A DNA stretch of 15,174 bases from a virus (UHGV-1738898), one strand, 5' to 3'; numbered from the stretch's first letter, positions 1 through 12,999 are shown. A program made the numbers and translations. The notes: generated by a model from the sequence alone, not told the origin.

Positions 1-111
1 CTGAGGCAGCACCTGGCACGGCTGGGACGGAAGTCGCTGTCGTTCTCAAAATCGGTGGAGCTGCATGACAAAGTCATCGGGCATTATCTGAACATAAAAC
101 ACTATCAATAA
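1..111 (+). other. 3' end of an ORF entering from upstream of the window (frame 1, stop TAA 109-111); possibly the displaced 5' part of the gpE-like capsid gene
   Basis: Frame 1 is open from position 1 to the TAA at 109-111 ([36 protein letters not shown]). It aligns weakly, in register, with lambda gpE residues about 29-50 (R..S..F...G). The downstream E-like ORF is in frame 3. Confidence 0.3.
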
Positions 112-170
112 GTTGGAGTCATTACCCACGAGATGAGGGATACGAATCAAAAACAATTCGTCCAGGTTAT

Positions 171-965
171 ATGAAGCCGAAAAGCAGCATTGATCCAAAT
201 AAGTTAGCTGTGCGCCCTGCTGGTGTGTCACCTGAGCAATACAATGCTTTTGGGGCGCGTAATATTAAAGTTAAACAGGCGATTGTAAATCAGGCTAAAG
301 CTATTCGTGCACGTATTGAATGGCTTGCTGTTCAGGCAATCACAACGGGGAAAAATATCATTGAGGGCGATGGTATTGAACGTTATGAGCTGGACTGGAA
401 TATAAAACCACAAAATATCATCACTCAGTCTGGCGGTACTGAGTGGTCAGGTAAGGATAAAGAAACTTTTGATCCAAATGATGATATTGAGAGCTACGCA
501 GAATTTAGTGAGGGCGTCACTAATATCATCATTATGGGTGGTAATGTATGGAAGAAATACCGTTCATTCAGAGCGATAAAAGAGGCTTTGGATACCCGTC
601 GTGGTTCTAATTCCGAACTGGAAACGGCCCTTAAAGACCTTGGTGATTCGGTGAGTTTTAAAGGGTATATGGGCGATGTTGCGATTGTTGTTTACAGCGG
701 GCGTTATACCGACGAGGACGGAACAGAAAAACATTTCCTTGATCCTGATTTGATGGTGCTTGGCAATACGGCTCTTCAGGGGATTGTCGCCTATGGCGGT
801 ATTCAGGATCCGGAGCTAATCCGAATGGGGCTGACTAAAGCCGAACTTGCACCGAAAAACTATATTGTGCCTGGTGATCCGGCTATTGAATATGTGCAGA
901 CACATTCAGCACCACAGCCAATACCGGCCCGCATCAATCGTTTTGTTACCGTTCGCATTGGCTAA
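171..965 (+). CDS. Major capsid protein homolog (lambda gpE family), divergent; 5'-incomplete or frameshifted copy covering the equivalent of gpE residues ~78-341
   Basis: The 264-aa ORF aligns along its whole length with the lambda E protein encoded at 6034-7059 in this window (shared blocks ITQSGGTEWS..KDK.T.DP.DDIE.YA, LDTRRGS.SELETA.KDLG, GDVAIVVYSG, MVLGNT, IQD). Similarity continues upstream of the ATG in the same frame (PGYMKPK vs lambda PGYVKPK) until an in-frame TGA at 66-68. No convincing Shine-Dalgarno precedes ATG 171. Confidence 0.65.
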   Translation: MKPKSSIDPNKLAVRPAGVSPEQYNAFGARNIKVKQAIVNQAKAIRARIEWLAVQAITTGKNIIEGDGIERYELDWNIKPQNIITQSGGTEWSGKDKETFDPNDDIESYAEFSEGVTNIIIMGGNVWKKYRSFRAIKEALDTRRGSNSELETALKDLGDSVSFKGYMGDVAIVVYSGRYTDEDGTEKHFLDPDLMVLGNTALQGIVAYGGIQDPELIRMGLTKAELAPKNYIVPGDPAIEYVQTHSAPQPIPARINRFVTVRIG

Positions 966-974
966 GGGGGAGCA

Positions 975-1316
975 ATGGCTACTCATTACACTGAACTCAT
1001 GGCTGGCACTGAAGCACTGGTGACTACGCTGGGGATATTTTCAGCTAATAAAGGGGTAATTCCTGCATTTACGCCACTGATGCAGGAAGATGCAACAGGT
1101 GCACTGGTGGTATGGGATGGTTCGAGCGTAGGTAAAGCGGTTTATGTTTCCGCTGTACAAATCGACACCGCGAAAAAAATACAGGCTCAGGTCTATAAGA
1201 CAGGTGTCTTAAATGTTGATGCTCTGAACTGGCCTGAGTCTGTTAAAGAACTGTCAGTAAAGGTTGCAGCGTTTGTTGGCTCAGGTATTTCTGTTCAGCC
1301 GCTGGCTCGTGTGTAA
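975..1316 (+). CDS. Head decoration protein homolog (lambda gpD family), divergent
   Basis: The 113-aa ORF has a strong RBS (GGGGGAG, 966-972). It aligns with lambda D encoded at 5647-5979 (THY near the N-terminus; PAFTPLMQEDATGALVVWDG vs [20 protein letters not shown]; VYKTG...WPE vs FYKSG...WPE; AF.G..IS near the C-terminus). Confidence 0.7.
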   Translation: MATHYTELMAGTEALVTTLGIFSANKGVIPAFTPLMQEDATGALVVWDGSSVGKAVYVSAVQIDTAKKIQAQVYKTGVLNVDALNWPESVKELSVKVAAFVGSGISVQPLARV

Positions 1317-1327
1317 AGGGGGATACA

Positions 1328-1711
1328 ATGCAGAATGATTACAATGACCTTAAGCCAATTGCCGAAATGATGTACCCGAATCCAGCTGTAGAGGAATTAA
1401 AAGCTATCGCTGACAAAATGTGTTTAAGCGAGCGCCTTGTTGATATGAATCAGGTGATGGAAATTACAACCCTGAGTCGTCGTACACTGCTAAACCTTGA
1501 GGCTAGTGGAGAGTTCCCGGAGCGTGTGCAGGTTACGGAAGGGCGTAAGGCCTGGTATTTAAGTGAAGTGATCGACTGGATAAATAATATTCCTCGCGCT
1601 TCTGAATATTGCCGCGTACCTGTCCCAAAAAAGCCAGATGCGGCGCTATGCCTCAAGATTGAGCGTGTACGCCGCAATGCACGGGATGGTCGCTATAAGC
1701 TGATTGGTTGA
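1328..1711 (+). CDS. AlpA/excisionase-family winged-HTH DNA-binding protein with N- and C-terminal extensions
   Basis: The 127-aa ORF has a strong RBS (AGGGGGA). Its central segment LVDMNQVMEITTLSRRTLLNLEASGEFPERVQVTEGRKAWYLSEVIDWI matches the AlpA family pattern (LSRxTIYxLxxxGxFPxPVxLGxRxVxWxxSEIxxWI). Confidence 0.7.
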   Translation: MQNDYNDLKPIAEMMYPNPAVEELKAIADKMCLSERLVDMNQVMEITTLSRRTLLNLEASGEFPERVQVTEGRKAWYLSEVIDWINNIPRASEYCRVPVPKKPDAALCLKIERVRRNARDGRYKLIG

Positions 1712-1736
1712 TGAAATTAGGGCCCGCTCTGGCTGG

Positions 1737-1801
1737 CGGGTCCTTTCCGGTGATCCGGTAGGCTACGGGGCGGCGACCTCGCGGGTTTTCGCTATTTATG
1801 A
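1737..1801. other. cos: Lambda-type cohesive-end site (cosQ/cosN region); the 12-nt cohesive-end sequence GGGCGGCGACCT lies at 1768-1779
   Basis: CGGGTCCTTTCCGGTGATCCG...TACGGGGCGGCGACCTCGCGGGTTTTCGCTATTTATGA matches my recollection of the lambda right-end/left-end junction (ACGGGTCCTTTCCGGTGATCCGACAGGTTACG | GGGCGGCGACCTCGCGGGTTTTCGCTATTTATGAAAATTTTCC). There are a few mismatches just left of cosN and complete divergence after ...TATTTATGA. It sits in the 200-bp gap between the AlpA-like gene and the Nu1-like gene, 134 bp upstream of the latter. Confidence 0.8.
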
Positions 1802-1912
1802 GCCTTTTTCGGGTGCTGGTGGTGGTTTTGTTGTTCGCTCTATCTCTATGAATAAAAAGGAAAAGATAAAGCCAATACACCAACCTGAAACATTACTTAA
1901 GTGGGGATATTG
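1802..1912. promoter_or_regulatory. Putative divergent cosB (small-terminase binding region) between cosN and the Nu1-like gene
   Basis: This is the position equivalent to lambda cosB (R3-I1-R2-R1), but the sequence is unrelated to the lambda R sites (CGTTTCC-type). It contains short repeats (GGTGGTGG, TTGTTGTT, CTCTATCTCTAT) and an A-rich tract. The call rests on position only. Confidence 0.3.
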
Positions 1913-2455
1913 ATGAAATCGCACCTGATGAACAAAAAAAACATGGCGCAAAGCTGCCGTGTAAGTGCGACAGCGTTCGACAAGTGGGGAGTGACTCCCG
2001 TTGAACGTAAAGGCCGCGAGGCGTTTTATGATGTTGCCAGCGTAATAGACAATCGGGTTAGCAATGCAATTAACCAGATTACAGACGACAAAGGCGAGAT
2101 TGATGATGATGAACTCCTACGAGTCAGGATCAGATTGCTGACAGCACAGGCAGAGGCGCAGGAGCTTAAAAACGAGCGCGAACGCGGCGACGTTATTGAT
2201 ACAGCGTTTTGTATATACGTGCTTTCAAAATTGGCGAGTCAGATTTCTTCAATCATGGACAGCCTGCCGCTTGCCATGACAAGGAAGTTTCCCGACATGA
2301 AGCCGTCTATGCTGGATGGACTGAAAAAAGAAGTTATCAGAGCCTGTAACGCATGCGCAAAACTTGACGAAAACATACCGCTGATGCTGTCCGATTATCT
2401 GATGGAAACTGCCGGAAACGTACCGGATAAGTTGCAGCCGAATAAAGATAAGTAA
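1913..2455 (+). CDS. Terminase small subunit, lambda Nu1 family; N-terminal DNA-binding domain divergent, C-terminal half conserved
   Basis: ATG 1913 is preceded by GGGGA (1903-1907); the ORF track shows an upstream GTG at 1901. The C-terminal region RLLTAQAEAQELKNERERGDVIDTAFCIYVLSKLASQISSIMDSLPLAMTRKFPD closely matches lambda Nu1 (RLTRAQADAQELKNARDSAEVVETAFCTFVLSRIAGEIASILDGLPLSVQRRFPE, from memory). The N-terminus is only loosely similar (NKK, YD.A.VI). Confidence 0.8.
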   Translation: MKSHLMNKKNMAQSCRVSATAFDKWGVTPVERKGREAFYDVASVIDNRVSNAINQITDDKGEIDDDELLRVRIRLLTAQAEAQELKNERERGDVIDTAFCIYVLSKLASQISSIMDSLPLAMTRKFPDMKPSMLDGLKKEVIRACNACAKLDENIPLMLSDYLMETAGNVPDKLQPNKDK

Positions 2456-2466
2456 CGTAGTACGCT

Positions 2467-2748
2467 ATGACTGAATCCGAAATACTGCGATTAATCCGCC
2501 GTGCTTGTGGAATCAGCAAGCAGCATGACGAACAGGCCACGCAGCCGGACAGCGTGACCGCAGATAATTATGTGCGTGTAGTGGCTGAGGTGATGCGCCG
2601 TGACGGTATTGAGCTTAACGGCGTGGATATGCGCAACATACGAACAAGAGTCCTTGAGTTGCTGGCATATCGTCGCCGTTCTCAACAACGGAGGGAGAGC
2701 GCGAAAAATACTTACCAGTGGAAGAAGCCGGAACGATTGCGGCGGTAA
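2467..2748 (+). CDS. Hypothetical 93-aa protein with an arginine/lysine-rich C-terminus; sits where the large-terminase gene A would start in lambda
   Basis: Intact ORF 12 bp after the Nu1-like stop, with a weak RBS. It has no recognisable similarity to the lambda gpA N-terminus or any family I can name. C-terminal tail RRRSQQRRESAKNTYQWKKPERLRR. Confidence 0.4.
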   Translation: MTESEILRLIRRACGISKQHDEQATQPDSVTADNYVRVVAEVMRRDGIELNGVDMRNIRTRVLELLAYRRRSQQRRESAKNTYQWKKPERLRR

Positions 2749-2763
2749 CTTGCTGATATTCCC

Positions 2764-2788
2764 GATAACGCAAAATTGCGCTGGCTGA
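2764..2788. repeat. 25-bp direct repeat, copy 1 (GATAACGCAAAATTGCGCTGGCTGA), containing an inverted repeat CGCAA-aa-TTGCG
   Basis: Matches 2950-2974 at 22 of 25 positions. A second small dyad TTGCA-t-TGCAA lies at 2793-2803. Confidence 0.6.
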
Positions 2789-2949
2789 CTTGTTGCATTG
2801 CAAAAAGTTAAGCAGGAAGGCACGGCCTGTAAGATGGGATGCAGTAAGTAGTTCAAGGCTACCTTGTGCTGGCACGCACAGTTAAGCCGTCGGTGCTGGA
2901 TATCCCCCACTGGGGGAAAAGCTGGCTACATCCCTCACATCTGAGGACT

Positions 2950-2974
2950 GATAACGCGACATTGCGCTGGCTGG
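2950..2974. repeat. 25-bp direct repeat, copy 2 (GATAACGCGACATTGCGCTGGCTGG)
   Basis: Matches 2764-2788 at 22 of 25 positions. It is followed at 2979-2992 by the inverted repeat GTGCAA-aa-TTGCAC. Confidence 0.6.
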
Positions 2975-2999
2975 CAAAGTGCAAAATTGCACGATGGCC

Positions 3000-3161
3000 T
3001 AACCCATTGATTATTTCGAAAACCTGCAATGCAGGAAATCGGGGAAGTAAGCCTAAGCTATTGATTGTTTCGAAAACCCCCATTGGGGGATGTCGGGAAA
3101 GTAAGACTAACCCATTGATTCTTCCACAATCCTCAATTTGAGGAGGCCGGAACGTCTACAT
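3000..3161. repeat. Three tandem ~54-bp units, each carrying a perfect 13-bp 6-1-6 dyad at the same phase (3023-3035 CCTGCAATGCAGG; 3077-3089 CCCCCATTGGGGG; 3131-3143 CCTCAATTTGAGG)
   Basis: Units 1 and 2 (3000-3053, 3054-3107) are about 78% identical by my count. Unit 3 starts with the same 13 nt (TAACCCATTGATT) and then degenerates, but keeps a perfect dyad exactly 54 bp after the previous one. Arm substitutions between dyads are mirrored so symmetry is preserved. A related dyad CCCCCACTGGGGG lies at 2904-2916. Confidence 0.7.
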
Positions 3162-3428
3162 AGCTGCATCGCCGTAATGATGATTCAGCCCACCAGCCAA
3201 ATCAGCACAGCAACGACAGAATAGCCCGACACAGAAAAACCACGAATATGGGGTTTTTGTTATGACATGGTCATGATGACCACTCATACAAAACAGGTAA
3301 AGCCCACCAGCCTGATTAAAGGTTAACCGGAAAAAAGCCAGGTATCCAATCTCGATATGGGGATCCCTATATCGACATTAACGCCCACTAAAACTGTGCA
3401 TATATGCATAGAAAAAGCATCCACCAGC

Positions 3429-3520
3429 TTTATGACGGATGCCGCTCATCTTATAAATAATCGTGTATTGCAGTGTGTATTGCGACTCCTTTAAACGATA
3501 GGTCTGAGCATTCGTAATGT
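3429..3520 (+). promoter_or_regulatory. AT-rich region with sigma70-like promoter candidates upstream of the truncated B fragment
   Basis: Candidate 1: TTTATG (3429-3434), 17-bp spacer, TATAAA (3452-3457). Candidate 2: TTAAAC (3491-3496), 18-bp spacer, TAATGT (3515-3520). Hexamer matching by eye only. Confidence 0.2.
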
Positions 3521-3563
3521 ACTGTTTTTAAATTTTATTTTTTCCTGTCTTTTCATAAAGGCG

Positions 3564-4337
3564 ATGTATGCCGCCACCATTGAAAGTGAGCTGGATACGC
3601 AGTCAGCGATGGATTTTATTCTGGGCGCGAACAGTCAGGAGCAGCGGGAAAGGCTGACGGGCTGGATTGGTGAAATTGCCGCGTATTACGCTGCAGCACC
3701 GGTCCGTCTGGGAGGCGCAAAAGTGCCGCACCTGATGCCGGGGGACTCACTGAACCTGCAGACGGCTCAGGACACGGATAACGGCTACTCCGTGTTTGAG
3801 CAGTCACTGTTGCGGTATATCGCTGCCGGGCTGGGTGTCTCGTATGAGCAGCTTTCCCGGAATTACGCCCAGATGAGCTACTCCACGGCACGGGCCAGTG
3901 CGAACGAGTCGTGGGCGTACTTTATGGGGCGGCGAAAATTCGTCGCATCCCGTCAGGCGAGCCAGATGTTTCTGTGCTGGCTGGAAGAGGCCATCGTTCG
4001 CCGCGTGGTGACGTTACCTTCAAAAGCGCGCTTCAGCTTTCAGGAAGCCCGCAGTGCCTGGGGGAACTGCGACTGGATAGGCTCCGGTCGTATGGCCATC
4101 GATGGTCTGAAAGAAGTTCAGGAAGCGGTGATGCTGATAGAAGCCGGACTGAGCACCTACGAGAAAGAGTGCGCGAAACGCGGTGACGACTATCAGGAAA
4201 TTTTTGCCCAGCAGGTCCGTGAAACGATGGAGCGCCGTGCAACCGGTCTTAAACCGCCCGCCTGGGCGGCTGCGGCATTTGAATCCGGACTGCGACAATC
4301 AACAGAGGAGGAGAAGAGTGACAGCAGAGCTGCGTAA
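3564..4337 (+). pseudogene. B: Portal protein gpB, 3' fragment only (C-terminal 257 codons, equivalent to lambda B residues ~277-533)
   Basis: The ORF (MYAATIESELDTQSAMDFILGANSQEQRERLTGWIGEIAAYYAAAP...AAAFESGLRQSTEEEKSDSRAA) matches the C-terminal half of lambda B as I recall it. An in-frame stop lies at 3492-3494. DNA upstream of ~3555 is AT-rich, non-coding and unlike lambda. The first approximately 276 codons of B are absent from the window. Confidence 0.85.
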
Positions 4338-7507: not shown

Positions 7508-7861
7508 GTGGCTGATTTCGATAACCTGTTCGATGCTGCCATTGCCCGCGCTGATGAAACGATACGCGGGTACATGGGAACGTCAGCCACCATGACATCC
7601 GGTGAGCAGTCCGGTGCTGTGATACGTGGTGTTTTTGATGACCCTGAAAATATCAGCTATGCCGGACAGGGCGTGCGCGTTGAAGGCTCCAGCCCGTCCC
7701 TGTTTGTCCGGACTGATGATGTGCGGCAGCTGCGGCGCGGCGACACGCTGACCATCGGTGAGGAAAACTTCTGGATAGACCGGATTTCGCCGGATGATGG
7801 CGGAAGCTGTCATCTCTGGCTTGGGCGGGGCGTACCGCCTGCCGTTAACCGTCGCCGCTGA
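7508..7861 (+). CDS. FII: Head-tail joining protein gpFII (GTG start)
   Basis: MADFDNLFDAAIARADETIRGYMGTSATMTSGEQSGAVIRGVFDDPENISYAGQGVRVEG... matches lambda FII (117 aa). Confidence 0.9.
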   Translation: MADFDNLFDAAIARADETIRGYMGTSATMTSGEQSGAVIRGVFDDPENISYAGQGVRVEGSSPSLFVRTDDVRQLRRGDTLTIGEENFWIDRISPDDGGSCHLWLGRGVPPAVNRRR

Positions 7862-7872
7862 AAGGGGGATGT

Positions 7873-8451
7873 ATGGCCATAAAAGGTCTTGAGCAGGCCA
7901 TTGAAAACCTCAGCCGTATCAGCAAAACGGCGGTGCCTGGTGCCGCCGCAATGGCCATTAACCGCGTTGCTTCATCCGCGATATCGCAGTCGGCGTCACA
8001 GGTTGCCCGTGAGACAAAGGTACGCCGGAAACTGGTAAAGGAAAGGGCCAGGCTGAAAAGGGCCACGGTCAAAAATCCGCAGGCCAGAATCAAAGTTAAC
8101 CGGGGGGATTTGCCCGTAATCAAGCTGGGTAATGCGCGGGTTGTCCTTTCGCGCCGCAGGCGTCGTAAAAAGGGGCAGCGTTCATCCCTGAAAGGTGGCG
8201 GCAGCGTGCTTGTGGTGGGTAACCGTCGTATTCCCGGCGCGTTTATTCAGCAACTGAAAAATGGCCGGTGGCATGTCATGCAGCGTGTGGCCGGGAAAAA
8301 CCGTTACCCCATTGATGTGGTGAAAATCCCGATGGCGGTGCCGCTGACCACGGCGTTTAAACAAAATATTGAGCGGATACGGCGTGAACGTCTTCCGAAA
8401 GAGCTGGGCTATGCGCTGCAGCATCAACTGAGGATGGTAATAAAGCGATGA
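7873..8451 (+). CDS. Z: Tail completion protein gpZ
   Basis: The 192-aa ORF MAIKGLEQAIENLSRISKTAVPGAAAMAINRVASSAISQ... matches lambda Z. Its stop overlaps the U start (ATGA). Confidence 0.9.
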   Translation: MAIKGLEQAIENLSRISKTAVPGAAAMAINRVASSAISQSASQVARETKVRRKLVKERARLKRATVKNPQARIKVNRGDLPVIKLGNARVVLSRRRRRKKGQRSSLKGGGSVLVVGNRRIPGAFIQQLKNGRWHVMQRVAGKNRYPIDVVKIPMAVPLTTAFKQNIERIRRERLPKELGYALQHQLRMVIKR

Positions 8452-9606: not shown

Positions 9607-10029
9607 ATGTTCCTGAAAACCGAATCATTTGAACATAACGGTGTGACCGTCACGCTTTCTGAACTGTCAGCCCTGCAGCGCATTGAGCATCTCGCCCTGA
9701 TGAAACGGCAGGCAGAACAGGCGGAGTCAGACAGCAACCGGAAGTTTACTGTGGAAGACGCCATCAGAACCGGCGCGTTTCTGGTGGCGATGTCCCTGTG
9801 GCATAACCATCCGCAGAAGACGCAGATGCCGTCCATGAATGAAGCCGTTAAACAGATTGAGCAGGAAGTGCTTACCACCTGGCCCACGGAGGCAATTTCT
9901 CATGCTGAAAACGTGGTGTACCGGCTGTCTGGTATGTATGAGTTTGTGGTGAATAATGCCCCTGAACAGACAGAGGACGCCGGGCCCGCAGAGCCTGTTT
10001 CTGCGGGAAAGTGTTCGACGGTGAGCTGA
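9607..10029 (+). CDS. G: Tail assembly chaperone gpG
   Basis: The 140-aa ORF MFLKTESFEHNGVTVTLSELSALQRIEHLALMKRQAEQAESDSNRKFTVEDAIRTGAFLV... matches lambda G. Confidence 0.9.
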   Translation: MFLKTESFEHNGVTVTLSELSALQRIEHLALMKRQAEQAESDSNRKFTVEDAIRTGAFLVAMSLWHNHPQKTQMPSMNEAVKQIEQEVLTTWPTEAISHAENVVYRLSGMYEFVVNNAPEQTEDAGPAEPVSAGKCSTVS

Positions 10030-10445: not shown

Positions 10446-12999
10446 ACCGGTAGGCGATCTGGTCGTTGATTTAAGTCTGGATGCGGCCAGATTTGACGAG
10501 CAGATGGCCAGAGTCAGGCGTCATTTTTCCGGTACGGAAAGTGATGCGAAAAAAACAGCGGCAGTCGTTGAACAGTCGCTGAGCCGACAGGCGCTGGCTG
10601 CACAGAAAGCGGGGATTTCCGTCGGGCAGTATAAAGCCGCCATGCGTATGCTGCCTGCACAGTTCACCGACGTGGCCACGCAGCTTGCAGGCGGGCAAAG
10701 TCCGTGGCTGATCCTGCTGCAACAGGGGGGGCAGGTGAAGGACTCCTTCGGCGGGATGATCCCCATGTTCAGGGGGCTTGCCGGTGCGATCACCCTGCCG
10801 ATGGTGGGGGCCACCTCGCTGGCGGTGGCGACCGGTGCGCTGGCGTATGCCTGGTATCAGGGCAACTCAACCCTGTCCGATTTCAACAAAACGCTGGTCC
10901 TTTCCGGCAATCAGGCGGGACTGACGGCAGATCGTATGCTGGTCCTGTCCAGAGCCGGGCAGGCGGCAGGGCTGATGTTTAACCAGACCAGCGAGTCACT
11001 CAGCGCACTGGTTAAGGCGGGGGTAAGCGGTGAGGCTCAGATTGCGTCCATCAGCCAGAGTGTGGCTCGTTTCTCCTCTGCATCCGGCGTGGAGGTGGAC
11101 AAGGTCGCTGAAGCCTTCGGGAAGCTGACCACAGACCCGACGTCGGGGCTGACGGCGATGGCACGCCAGTTCCATAACGTGACGGCGGAGCAGATTGCGT
11201 ATGTTGCTCAGTTGCAGCGTTCCGGCGATGAAGCCGGGGCATTGCAGGCGGCGAACGAGGCCGCAACGAAAGGGTTTGATGACCAGACCCGCCGCCTGAA
11301 AGAGAACATGGGCACGCTGGAGACCTGGGCAGACAGGACTGCGCGGGCCTTCAAATCCATGTGGGATGCGGTGCTGGATATTGGTCGTCCTGATACCGCG
11401 CAGGAGATGCTGATTAAGGCAGAGGCTGCGTTTAAGAAAGCAGACGACATCTGGAATCTGCGCAAGGATGATTATTTTGTTAACGATGAAGCGCGGGCGC
11501 GTTACTGGGATGATCGTGAAAAGGCCCGTCTTGCGCTTGAAGCCGCCCGAAAGAAGGCTGAGCAGCAGACTCAACAGGACAAAAATGCGCAGCAGCAGAG
11601 CGATACCGAAGCGTCACGGCTGAAATATACCGAAGAGGCGCAGAAGGCTTACAAACGGCTGCAGACGCCGCTGGAGAAATATACCGCCCGTCAGGAAGAA
11701 CTGAACAAGGCACTGAAAGACGGGAAAATCCTGCAGGCGGATTACAACACGCTGATGGCGGCGGCGAAAAAGGATTATGAAGCGACGCTGAAAAAGCCGA
11801 AACAGTCCGGCGTGAAGGTGTCTGCGGGCGATCGTCAGGAAGACAGTGCTCATGCTGCCCTGCTGACGCTTCAGGCAGAACTCCGGACGCTGGAGAAGCA
11901 TGCCGGAGCGAATGAGAAAATCAGCCAGCAGCGCCGGGATTTGTGGAAGGCAGAAAGTCAGTTCGCGGTACTGGAGGAGGCGGCACAACGTCGCCAGCTG
12001 TCCGCACAGGAGAAATCCCTGCTGGCGCATAAAGATGAGACGCTGGAGTACAAACGCCAGCTGGCTGCACTTGGCGACAAGGTTACGTATCAGGAGCGCC
12101 TGAACGCGCTGGCGCAGCAGGCGGATAAATTCGCACAGCAGCAACGGGCAAAACGGGCCGCCATTGATGCGAAAAGCCGGGGGCTGACTGACCGGCAGGC
12201 AGAACGGGAAGCCACGGAACAGCGCCTGAAGGAACAGTATGGCGATAATCCGCTGGCGCTGAATAACGTCATGTCAGAGCAGAAAAAGACCTGGGCGGCT
12301 AAAGACCAGCTTCGCGGGAGCTGGATGGCAGGCCTGAAGTCCGGCTGGAGTGAGTGGGAAGAGAGCGCCACGGACAGTATGTCGCAGGTAAAAAGTGCAG
12401 CCACGCAGACCTTTGATGGTATTGCACAGAATATGGCAGCGATGCTGACCGGCAGTGAGCAGAACTGGCGCAGCTTCACCCGTTCCGTGCTGTCCATGAT
12501 GACAGAAATTCTGCTTAAGCAGGCAATGGTGGGGATTGTCGGGAGTATCGGCAGCGCCATTGGCGGGGCTGTTGGTGGCGGCGCATCCGCGTCAGGCGGT
12601 ACAGCCATTCAGGCCGCTGCGGCGAAATTCCATTTTGCAACCGGAGGATTCACAGGAACCGGCGGTAAATATGAGCCAGCGGGGATTGTTCATCGTGGTG
12701 AATTTGTCTTCACGAAGGAGGCAACCAGCCGGATTGGCGTGGGGAATCTTTACCGGCTGATGCGCGGCTATGCCACCGGCGGTTATGTCGGTACACCGGG
12801 CAGCATGGCAGACAGCCGGTCGCAGGCGTCCGGGACGTTTGAGCAGAATAACCATGTGGTGATTAACAACGACGGCACGAACGGGCAGATAGGTCCGGCT
12901 GCTCTGAAGGCAGTGTATGACATGGCCCGCAAGGGTGCCCGTGATGAAATCCAGGCACAGATGCGCGATGGTGGTCTGTTCTCCGGAGGTGGACGATGA
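10438..12999 (+). CDS. H: Tail tape measure protein gpH
   Basis: The 853-aa ORF MAEPVGDLVVDLSLDAARFDEQMARVRRHFSGTESDAKKTAAVVEQ... matches lambda H in length and sequence. Its start overlaps the end of T. Confidence 0.95.
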   Translation: MAEPVGDLVVDLSLDAARFDEQMARVRRHFSGTESDAKKTAAVVEQSLSRQALAAQKAGISVGQYKAAMRMLPAQFTDVATQLAGGQSPWLILLQQGGQVKDSFGGMIPMFRGLAGAITLPMVGATSLAVATGALAYAWYQGNSTLSDFNKTLVLSGNQAGLTADRMLVLSRAGQAAGLMFNQTSESLSALVKAGVSGEAQIASISQSVARFSSASGVEVDKVAEAFGKLTTDPTSGLTAMARQFHNVTAEQIAYVAQLQRSGDEAGALQAANEAATKGFDDQTRRLKENMGTLETWADRTARAFKSMWDAVLDIGRPDTAQEMLIKAEAAFKKADDIWNLRKDDYFVNDEARARYWDDREKARLALEAARKKAEQQTQQDKNAQQQSDTEASRLKYTEEAQKAYKRLQTPLEKYTARQEELNKALKDGKILQADYNTLMAAAKKDYEATLKKPKQSGVKVSAGDRQEDSAHAALLTLQAELRTLEKHAGANEKISQQRRDLWKAESQFAVLEEAAQRRQLSAQEKSLLAHKDETLEYKRQLAALGDKVTYQERLNALAQQADKFAQQQRAKRAAIDAKSRGLTDRQAEREATEQRLKEQYGDNPLALNNVMSEQKKTWAAKDQLRGSWMAGLKSGWSEWEESATDSMSQVKSAATQTFDGIAQNMAAMLTGSEQNWRSFTRSVLSMMTEILLKQAMVGIVGSIGSAIGGAVGGGASASGGTAIQAAAAKFHFATGGFTGTGGKYEPAGIVHRGEFVFTKEATSRIGVGNLYRLMRGYATGGYVGTPGSMADSRSQASGTFEQNNHVVINNDGTNGQIGPAALKAVYDMARKGARDEIQAQMRDGGLFSGGGR

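Follow-up and report, generated by a model that had tools for sequence, protein, structure and literature searches.

In phages λ and 21 the nicking site is shared, and packaging specificity lies in the pairing of cosB with the DNA-binding domain of the small terminase subunit (TerS), together with a C-terminal domain of TerS that is specific for the large terminase subunit (TerL). The same general logic, in which a shared core is combined with a specificity of its own, is already published for phage-inducible chromosomal islands (PICIs) in Gram-negative hosts, in the form of cos1 and Rpp of EcCICFT073 (PMC6092414, PMC6739421, PMC9026076). In particular, cos1 of EcCICFT073 is functional in experiments, and RppA redirects it (PMC6092414, PMC6739421), while Rpps, which are without a TerL-binding tail, depend on the TerS of the helper phage (PMC9026076). 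In SaPI1 and SaPIbov1 it is a satellite-encoded small terminase that redirects the large terminase of the helper (summarised in PMC6092414). Both the principle of packaging piracy and the satellite group concerned here are therefore already known. Here we analyse a stretch of 15,174 nucleotides of viral DNA (UHGV-1738898; "the window" is this whole stretch), in which a PICI-type phage satellite has its cos site at positions 1737–1887 and the gene that follows, terS, encodes a small terminase subunit. The site joins a λ-type nicking core to a complete TerS and a cosB that appears to be of the N15 class, keeps the geometry of the λ R3 and R2 sites and takes part in a cassette exchange with rpp, three points that appear undescribed in the searchable literature. 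We consider it probable (roughly 65%) that the satellite TerS reads its own cosB and brings the TerL of the helper to the shared cosN, replacing the Rpp that EcCICFT073 has at the same locus.

The features of the cos region and of the adjoining gene are given below. Here and throughout, bp are numbered from the cohesive end, bp 1 being the first G of GGGCGGCGACCT at window position 1768.

1738–1744, plus strand: cosQ heptamer GGGTCCT, placed as in λ, from −29 to −23 relative to the cohesive end
1763–1784, plus strand: cosN, agreeing with λ in 21 of its 22 bases and with the helper prophage of Escherichia coli N66 in all 22
1768–1779, plus strand: cohesive-end sequence GGGCGGCGACCT, inside cosN
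1780–1801, plus strand: equivalent of λ bp 13–34 (right half of cosN and I2 spacer), identical to λ
1818–1835, plus strand: block A, GGTGGTGGTTTTGTTGTT (bp 51–68), the proposed R3 equivalent for the satellite TerS
1854–1865, minus strand: λ-R-like relic, CTTTTCCTTTTT, which agrees with the λ R consensus at 10 of 12 positions
1873–1887, minus strand: block B, CAATACACCAACCTG (bottom strand CAGGTTGGTGTATTG; bp 106–120), at the position of λ R2
1913–2455, plus strand: terS, a full-length small terminase subunit of the Nu1/N15-gp1 type, 180 amino acids (aa; Pfam, PHROG, BLASTP)

Positions 1737–1801, which read CGGGTCCTTTCCGGTGATCCGGTAGGCTACG, GGGCGGCGACCT and CGCGGGTTTTCGCTATTTATGA in succession, align without gaps with cosQ, cosN and bp 1–34 of λ at 62 of 65 positions, and with the cos of the λ-like helper prophage of E. 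coli N66 at 61 of 65. When phage records were searched (50,697 records, 2.3 Gb), this 65-nt core was found at 95.4% identity (E = 3e-19), and within window 127–3555 nucleotide similarity to any phage record was confined to it. The original prediction, made from the DNA alone, had held that the nicking core is that of λ and that the sequence on either side is not; both parts stand, the latter because the core is the sole nucleotide match to a phage record in 127–3555, and the idea that all of 1–3555 might simply be λ DNA is rejected on the same search. The similarity to λ does not stop abruptly at 1802 and fades through about position 1812. The cosQ heptamer is the same in λ and in the helper prophage and is kept in all related satellites. 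Nicks would be expected before 1768 on the top strand and after 1779 on the bottom strand. Within the window the 12-mer core is found a single time, and a search of the window for a second, inverted cos2 found none. We also observed that an element resembling CGCTAT(N)TATG(A/G), at bp 23–34, is common to λ, the satellites, N15 (CGCTATATATGA) and Pseudomonas phage Hali (CACTATGTATGG), the last of which has it despite a different record start; the places concerned are window 1780–1801 and bp 21–34 of both L020 and L021.

The gene that follows the site is that of a complete member of the Nu1 family, in agreement with the predicted picture of an element recognised by its own small subunit. The satellite TerS is 38% identical to λ Nu1 along its whole length and matches Pfam Phage_Nu1 (PF07471) over aa 66–148 (E 3.3e-24) and PHROG 57 over residues 1–176 (E 5e-51). 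The nearest phage protein is gp1 of N15, at 47.6% identity, and no phage record is closer than 48%. A search of the PDB with the single sequence recovered no TerS; with a profile of the family, λ TerS 1–98 (PDB 6HN7_B) was matched over residues 6–84 (E 0.009). The DNA-binding domain, taken as the first 50 residues, is 59% identical to residues 1–47 of N15 gp1 with zero gaps, as compared with 38% and 19 gap positions against λ. Within this domain the stretch AFDKWGV aligns with the recognition helix of λ TerS (residues 17–24; PMC9026076) and is identical in N15 gp1 and in Pseudomonas phage Hali. The C-terminal half is 42–48% identical to both λ and N15, whereas the same half of N15 TerS is 80–85% identical to that of λ. 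The tail motif LDExIPxxLSxY is found in the satellite TerS, in λ and in N15, and is absent from the 21-type TerS of CFT073 prophage 4. Across the TerS family of the satellites, conservation is highest in the N-terminal 50 residues (31 of 50 invariant) and lowest in the C-terminal tail (4 of 27), and terS lies inside a satellite in all nine distinct contexts with enough flanking DNA.

To the right of the core the site differs from λ in sequence and agrees with it in layout. In ungapped λ coordinates R3 occupies bp 53–68, R2 (inverted) bp 105–120 and R1 bp 154–169, and blocks A and B coincide with the R3 and R2 positions without any gap, although their sequences differ from those of λ. Conservation was scored across 10 distinct satellites with terS, from Escherichia, Enterobacter, Citrobacter, Kosakonia and Superficieibacter, which are inserted in portal genes, capsid genes or chromosomal sites and differ in their integrases and replication genes; the relatives were gathered by a scan of genome contigs (5 loci) and by protein look-ups. 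Block A, with the consensus GGTGGTGGT(T/G)TTGTTGTT, is the best-conserved segment of the cos region across these five genera (14 of 18 columns invariant, mean conservation 0.97). Block B, with the consensus CAATACACC(A/C)AC(C/T)TG, was scored over 1873–1885 (8 of 13 columns invariant, mean 0.92). For comparison, the cohesive end at bp 1–12 has 6 of 12 invariant columns and a mean of 0.90, and the spacers at 1802–1817 and 1836–1872 (bp 35–50 and 69–105) have means of 0.66–0.72. On the strand opposite to that of block A, block B is rich in G and T, which is what an inverted R2 would show. Compared with block A in inverted orientation, it matches at 9 of 16 positions, which is within chance for so G/T-rich a composition, and a repeat search of 1790–1915 turned up neither direct nor inverted copies.

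At the R3 and R2 positions there is no R sequence of the λ or of the 21 type, and R1 is absent since the ATG of terS lies at bp 146. These points are differences from λ and 21, as is the occurrence of the site in a satellite and not in a phage; the placing of elements at the same R3 and R2 positions is a likeness. A search for R and IHF sites, which the prediction had proposed, returned a single λ-R-like match, the minus-strand relic CTTTTCCTTTTT, which is displaced 18 bp towards cosN relative to λ R2 and occurs in the Escherichia subfamily only, and no good IHF site, the best scoring 10/13 as compared with 12/13 for λ I1. The TerS-binding side had been described as replaced by an unrelated one. 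Replacement holds, given the lack of λ R sequences at R3 and R2 and the lack of R1; "unrelated" is too strong, because the λ spacing of R3 and R2 is kept and an N15-like element is present. A gapped MAFFT alignment, which introduced a 22-bp gap and paired GAATAAAAAGGAAAAG with λ R2, was rejected because that purine run is kept only in Escherichia and because a conserved block stands at the true R2 position. Separately, L011 and L012, two PICIs that are otherwise nearly identical, have (GGT)n runs of unequal length in block A (at about 9905–9925), that of L011 being 6 bp shorter.

The comparison with N15 connects block A to the DNA-binding domain of TerS. R3 of N15 has been mapped by scanning mutagenesis to bp 48–60 (PMC9026076); this segment reads GAGGTTGTTGTTT and has GTTGTTGTT in common with block A, and the GTTGTTGTT-type core of the satellite lies at bp 60–68. 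Hali and related prophages have a quite different record start, GGTAATTCGA, and carry GAGGTTGGTTGTTGTGTTGTT just upstream of terS; the GTTGTTG-type element of Hali is at record positions 45–65, where the record start may not be the physical end. All three lineages, satellites, N15 and Hali, thus have a GTTGTTG-type element upstream of terS and an AFDKWGV helix in the protein, and this shared pairing supports block A as a candidate TerS site. N15 resembles the satellite further in its λ-like cosQ, cosN and CGCTAT(N)TATGA spacer. N15 differs, however, in having a single R3 site and a terS that begins at bp 89, as opposed to bp 146 in the satellite, and in lacking block B. On sequence comparison, the winged-helix DNA-binding domain of the satellite TerS is of the phage N15 class, and the block at the R3 position appears to be so as well.

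The closest described system, EcCICFT073, also has λ-type cosQ and cosN followed by a cosB that is not that of its helper, and it has the same order of capsid gene, decoration gene, small open reading frame (ORF), cos, specificity gene and 93-aa ORF. It differs in the specificity gene itself: RppA is a protein of 144 aa without the TerL-binding tail, whereas the protein encoded here is a full-length TerS of 180 aa with the tail. No alignment was obtained when the satellite TerS was compared with RppA by BLASTP; RppA matches RppC (PDB 6HLK) with E 5e-31. The two systems differ as well in cosB, which has GGTGGTGGTTTTGTTGTT in the window and GGTGACACCACCACCAC in EcCICFT073, and in cos2, a second, inverted site that EcCICFT073 has and the window does not. 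A TerS-type PICI that occupies the same chromosomal locus as EcCICFT073 matches it in DNA through cosQ, cosN and bp 34, after which both cosB and the gene differ, and this PICI, EcCICFT073 and λ all diverge directly after TTTATGA. Because the match runs to bp 34 and the two parts then differ together, and because RppA and TerS have no similarity, cosB and the specificity gene (terS or rpp) appear to behave as a swappable cassette whose left joint lies right after bp 34.

Several further details of these islands were observed. In EcCICFT073 cos1, GGTGACACCACCACCAC is at the R3 position (L014, about 7605–7625), and its top-strand run CACCACCACCAC complements the GTGGTGGTGGTG-type run that block A of the TerS type has. 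The chromosomal PICIs at the ycfD–phoQ locus carry an inverted cos2 downstream of terS or rppA (L011–L013 at about 10690–10760, minus strand; L014 at about 8270–8340), and the cos2 of EcCICFT073 has a phage-21-like R sequence, CATGTCCGG, after it.

The remaining features of the window that concern the satellite and its surroundings are as follows.

1–126, no strand assigned: right end of IS1 (IS1B-like), truncating the satellite; 100% match to thousands of IS1B-annotated copies on plasmids and chromosomes
127–965, plus strand: λ-E-type major capsid gene, 3′ 839 nt (Pfam Phage_cap_E, E 1.2e-32, profile positions 74–327)
975–1316, plus strand: head decoration protein of the λ D type (Pfam HDPD, E 3.7e-14; PHROG 49)
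1328–1711, plus strand: AlpA-like helix-turn-helix protein of 127 aa, directly upstream of cos (Pfam Phage_AlpA, PF05930, E 7.6e-9; PHROG 2790, E 1e-49)
1719–1744, plus strand: hairpin of 10 bp with cosQ as its 3′ arm and UUUCC after it; resembles a terminator, not significant
2467–2748, plus strand: conserved satellite ORF of 93 aa (PHROG 1561); EcCICFT073 has a 76% identical ORF downstream of rppA
3463–3483, plus strand: doubled GTGTATTGC motif, a putative arm-type integrase site of the attR arm, also found doubled upstream of int at attL in N66
3558–3565, plus strand: attR identity block AAGGCGAT, the right end of the satellite (from comparison of attL and attR in N66)
3564–4337, plus strand: C-terminal part of the helper portal gene (λ-B-type), split by the satellite (Pfam Phage_portal_2, profile positions 238–354)

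Window 127–3600 recurs with 100% identity in the chromosome of E. coli N66, as the right end of an element of 10,908 bp that is inserted, co-oriented, in the λ-B-type portal gene of a λ-like prophage; the N-terminal part of the portal gene lies 10.9 kb upstream. The N66 element comprises genes for an integrase, a helix-turn-helix regulator, a BRO-N protein, an Icd-like protein, a DUF4222 protein, a primase, SSB, the E-type capsid, the D-type decoration protein and the AlpA-like protein, then cos, the small terminase gene and the 93-aa ORF. The element thus includes integrase, AlpA and primase, and what lies left of 127 in the window is IS1. At the IS1 junction the 5′ 202 nt of the capsid gene are missing, the full gene of 1041 nt being present in N66 (L001, 14799–15839). 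The DNA that hosts the cos site is that of a PICI-type satellite, in line with the comparison that had been drawn to cos-type phage satellites, and the site does lie between an AlpA-like and a Nu1-like gene. A counterpart of the AlpA-like protein, 70% identical, occurs in a Citrobacter satellite.

The attR sequence equals a published alignment, and its identity block is the one listed as "Att Identity aaggcgat" for the group B:Phage_portal_2:241 (PMC10111431), the catalogued group of helper-embedded PICIs (HE-PICIs) to which the element belongs, as judged from its att sequence. Like the HE-PICIs of Tommasini, Mageeney and Williams (2023), the element has this attR and block AAGGCGAT, measures about 10.9 kb and is co-oriented in a lambdoid portal gene, whose C-terminal fragment starts at profile position 238, near profile codon 241 of the group; it differs in having terS, which the model element 11capE lacks, and in being cut by IS1. 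Neither Nu1 nor a terS-linked cos is mentioned in the HE-PICI paper or in its stored supplements. The preprint version of the HE-PICI work reports a doubled motif in attP (10.1101/2022.07.18.500453). Classification as a capsid-forming PICI was rejected because the morphogenesis genes of the N66 element are confined to capsid, decoration and terS, with no TerL, portal, protease or head-completion genes of its own, and a P4-like classification was rejected on gene content.

Taken with the published systems, these observations lead us to propose the following course of events. Upon induction of the helper the satellite would excise and replicate, and the satellite TerS would bind block A and perhaps block B. 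Its λ/N15-like C-terminal tail would then load the gpA-type TerL of the helper onto the shared cosN, TerL would nick before 1768 and after 1779, and packaging would proceed rightward and stop at a later cosQ–cosN. Four units of 10.9 kb (43.6 kb) would fill a λ-sized head; packaging of multimers into full-sized heads has been proposed for the similarly sized EcCICFT073. One satellite protein would in this way do the job that Rpp and the helper TerS do together in EcCICFT073. A gpA-type large terminase of the helper should be able to nick and terminate at the satellite cos because cosQ, cosN and bp 1–34 equal those of the helper, and helper Nu1 should, by analogy, use the satellite cos poorly because the λ R sites are absent; the published analogy is that λ cannot package N15 DNA, whereas N15 packages λ DNA. 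SaPI1 and SaPIbov1, which resemble the proposed scheme in their use of a satellite small terminase, differ in being headful pac systems with a TerS of an unrelated family and with a separate inhibitor of the helper TerS (Ppi), where the site described here belongs to a λ-type cos system. A broader proposition is that cosB and terS form a distinct, self-sufficient packaging-specificity system, in which an N15-class TerS and sites at the R3 and R2 positions sit on a helper-type cosQ and cosN, are exchanged as a unit with the rpp–cosB cassette at a joint in bp 1–34 and use the TerL of the helper without its TerS; for this we see the odds as evenly balanced.

A number of observations weigh against the proposal that the satellite TerS reads its own cosB and recruits the helper TerL. 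Contact with a λ-type gpA is not assured, given a C-terminal half that is just 42–48% identical, and an AlphaFold2 model of the satellite TerS built from 11 sequences reached a predicted local distance difference test score (pLDDT) of only 52, too low to bear out the fold, although helix, hairpin and helix stood in the correct order. That one protein reads both blocks is unproven, since inverted similarity between them (9/16) lends it no support. The GTTGTTGTT core lies 9 bp farther from cosN in the satellite than in N15, and the (GGT)n run of L011, being 6 bp shorter, alters the spacing between cosN and the GTTGTT core; the spacing of cosN and cosB is critical in λ (PMC9026076). The satellite in the window is interrupted by IS1. 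Finally, some E. coli PICIs do encode TerS, and when such PICIs were tested in 2018, prophage induction did not mobilise them (PMC6092414).

Three other explanations were weighed against this proposal. In the manner worked out for Rpp (PMC6739421), the satellite TerS might enter mixed oligomers with helper Nu1, so that recognition of the helper cos is blocked and the complex is redirected to the satellite cosB, with Nu1 supplying the contact to TerL. The gene does occupy the exact position of rppA between homologous neighbours, the central oligomerisation region of its product is 36–42% identical to that of λ Nu1, and the C-terminal tail has diverged from λ far more than that of N15. We nevertheless regard such a mode as unlikely: the protein has no detectable sequence similarity to RppA, it is full-length and carries the λ/N15-type tail motif that is absent from Rpps (PMC9026076), and the λ dimer-interface residues 11–13 (IFG) align with SCR in it. 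Even less probable, and in our view very much so, is mimicry of a helper cos, whereby the site would copy that of an N15-like Ravinvirus or of the λ-like host prophage and be read by the TerS of the helper, as in SaPIbov5 and as presumed for 11capE, with the satellite terS dispensable or otherwise employed. There is precedent in 11capE, which has 258 bp in common with the cos of its helper at 90% identity (PMC10111431), and N15-like phages such as Enterobacter phage MStein-2023a have λ-type cosQ and cosN together with GAGGTTGTTGTTT; the λ-R-like 10/12 match at 1854–1865 could likewise be read as a copy. However, the host prophage of N66 has λ cosB and λ Nu1 whereas the satellite cosB is without λ R at R3 and R2, the GTTGTTGTT core is 9 bp off that of N15, block B is not found in N15, and the satellite cosB is always accompanied by its own, highly conserved terS.

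The third explanation is the most serious of the three, although we still hold it to be doubtful. It supposes that the site is an inert relic in its source genome, IS1 having possibly removed int, the regulators and the replication genes and left cos and terS stranded and the helper portal permanently split. At 127 IS1 adjoins a capsid gene that has lost 202 nt, the window shows nothing of the satellite beyond IS1, and 0 of 5426 complete E. coli genomes have this junction, so that the source strain is not one of them. Set against this, 127–3600 is 100% identical to the intact N66 element, with terS, cos and attR undamaged, and after a simple insertion of IS1 the remainder of the satellite would still lie upstream. 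Moreover, such an explanation bears on activity in the source strain and not on the identity of the site.

Of 5426 complete E. coli genomes, 767 (about 14%) carry the cosB–terS module, O157:H7 strains included. Searches of the full-text literature found no analysis of the cos sites of TerS-type E. coli PICIs, and no papers under the element names EcCIIHE3034 and EcCI18098. The Rpp type is so far the only packaging switch of PICIs to have been elucidated, and a whole small terminase of the N15 class at a λ-type nicking site would be a second way of solving the same problem of piracy. The satellites would then amount to a natural experiment on which part of TerS recruits TerL, on how the R3/R2 geometry survives replacement of the sequence and on how specificity modules swap between satellites. 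If the broader proposition is true, they would provide a natural test of the Murialdo–Feiss hypothesis, the C-terminal tail of TerS being what Rpp-type islands must borrow, and a further class of cosB specificity for the λ family. There is also relevance for predicting which prophages are able to mobilise such islands, whose cargo often serves defence or virulence, and for annotation, in that a λ cosN in a genome need not mean the end of a phage.

Related satellites differ in their cargo near the late module (L016, 3379–4254; L008, 10559–11916; L017, 7036–7758); a CAP12/TIR-domain protein, an FRG-domain protein accompanied by DUF3892, and a CoiA-like nuclease are among what is encoded there, and such genes may act against phages. 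In N66, where helper and satellite form an unexcised composite prophage, their cos sites (L001, 3868 and 16642) are direct repeats 12.8 kb apart, and were the satellite to fail to excise, a packaging run of the helper would soon meet a second cosQ–cosN. Folding of the hairpin at 1719–1744 as RNA gave −24.2 kcal/mol (z = −1.36), and a clear terminator hairpin stands at the equivalent place in related PICIs. A scan for promoters and terminators returned nothing exceeding chance, and a search of window 1–3700 against Rfam gave zero matches at E up to 1.

The non-coding stretch of 800 bp between the 93-aa ORF and attR contains three tandem repeats of 54 bp (2997–3158), the second and third being 80% and 61% identical to the first, with no Rfam match; each includes a short G+C-rich hairpin, and the stem sequence differs from one to the next. 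Between these repeats and the integrase arm motifs, (AG)CCCACCAGC(C/T) occurs in three copies (3187–3433) at intervals of 114–117 bp. The doubled GTGTATTGC motif and the bottom strand of block B (1873–1882) have the 8-mer GTGTATTG in common, an overlap that may be coincidence, because block B is also found in satellites whose integrases lack the arm motif.

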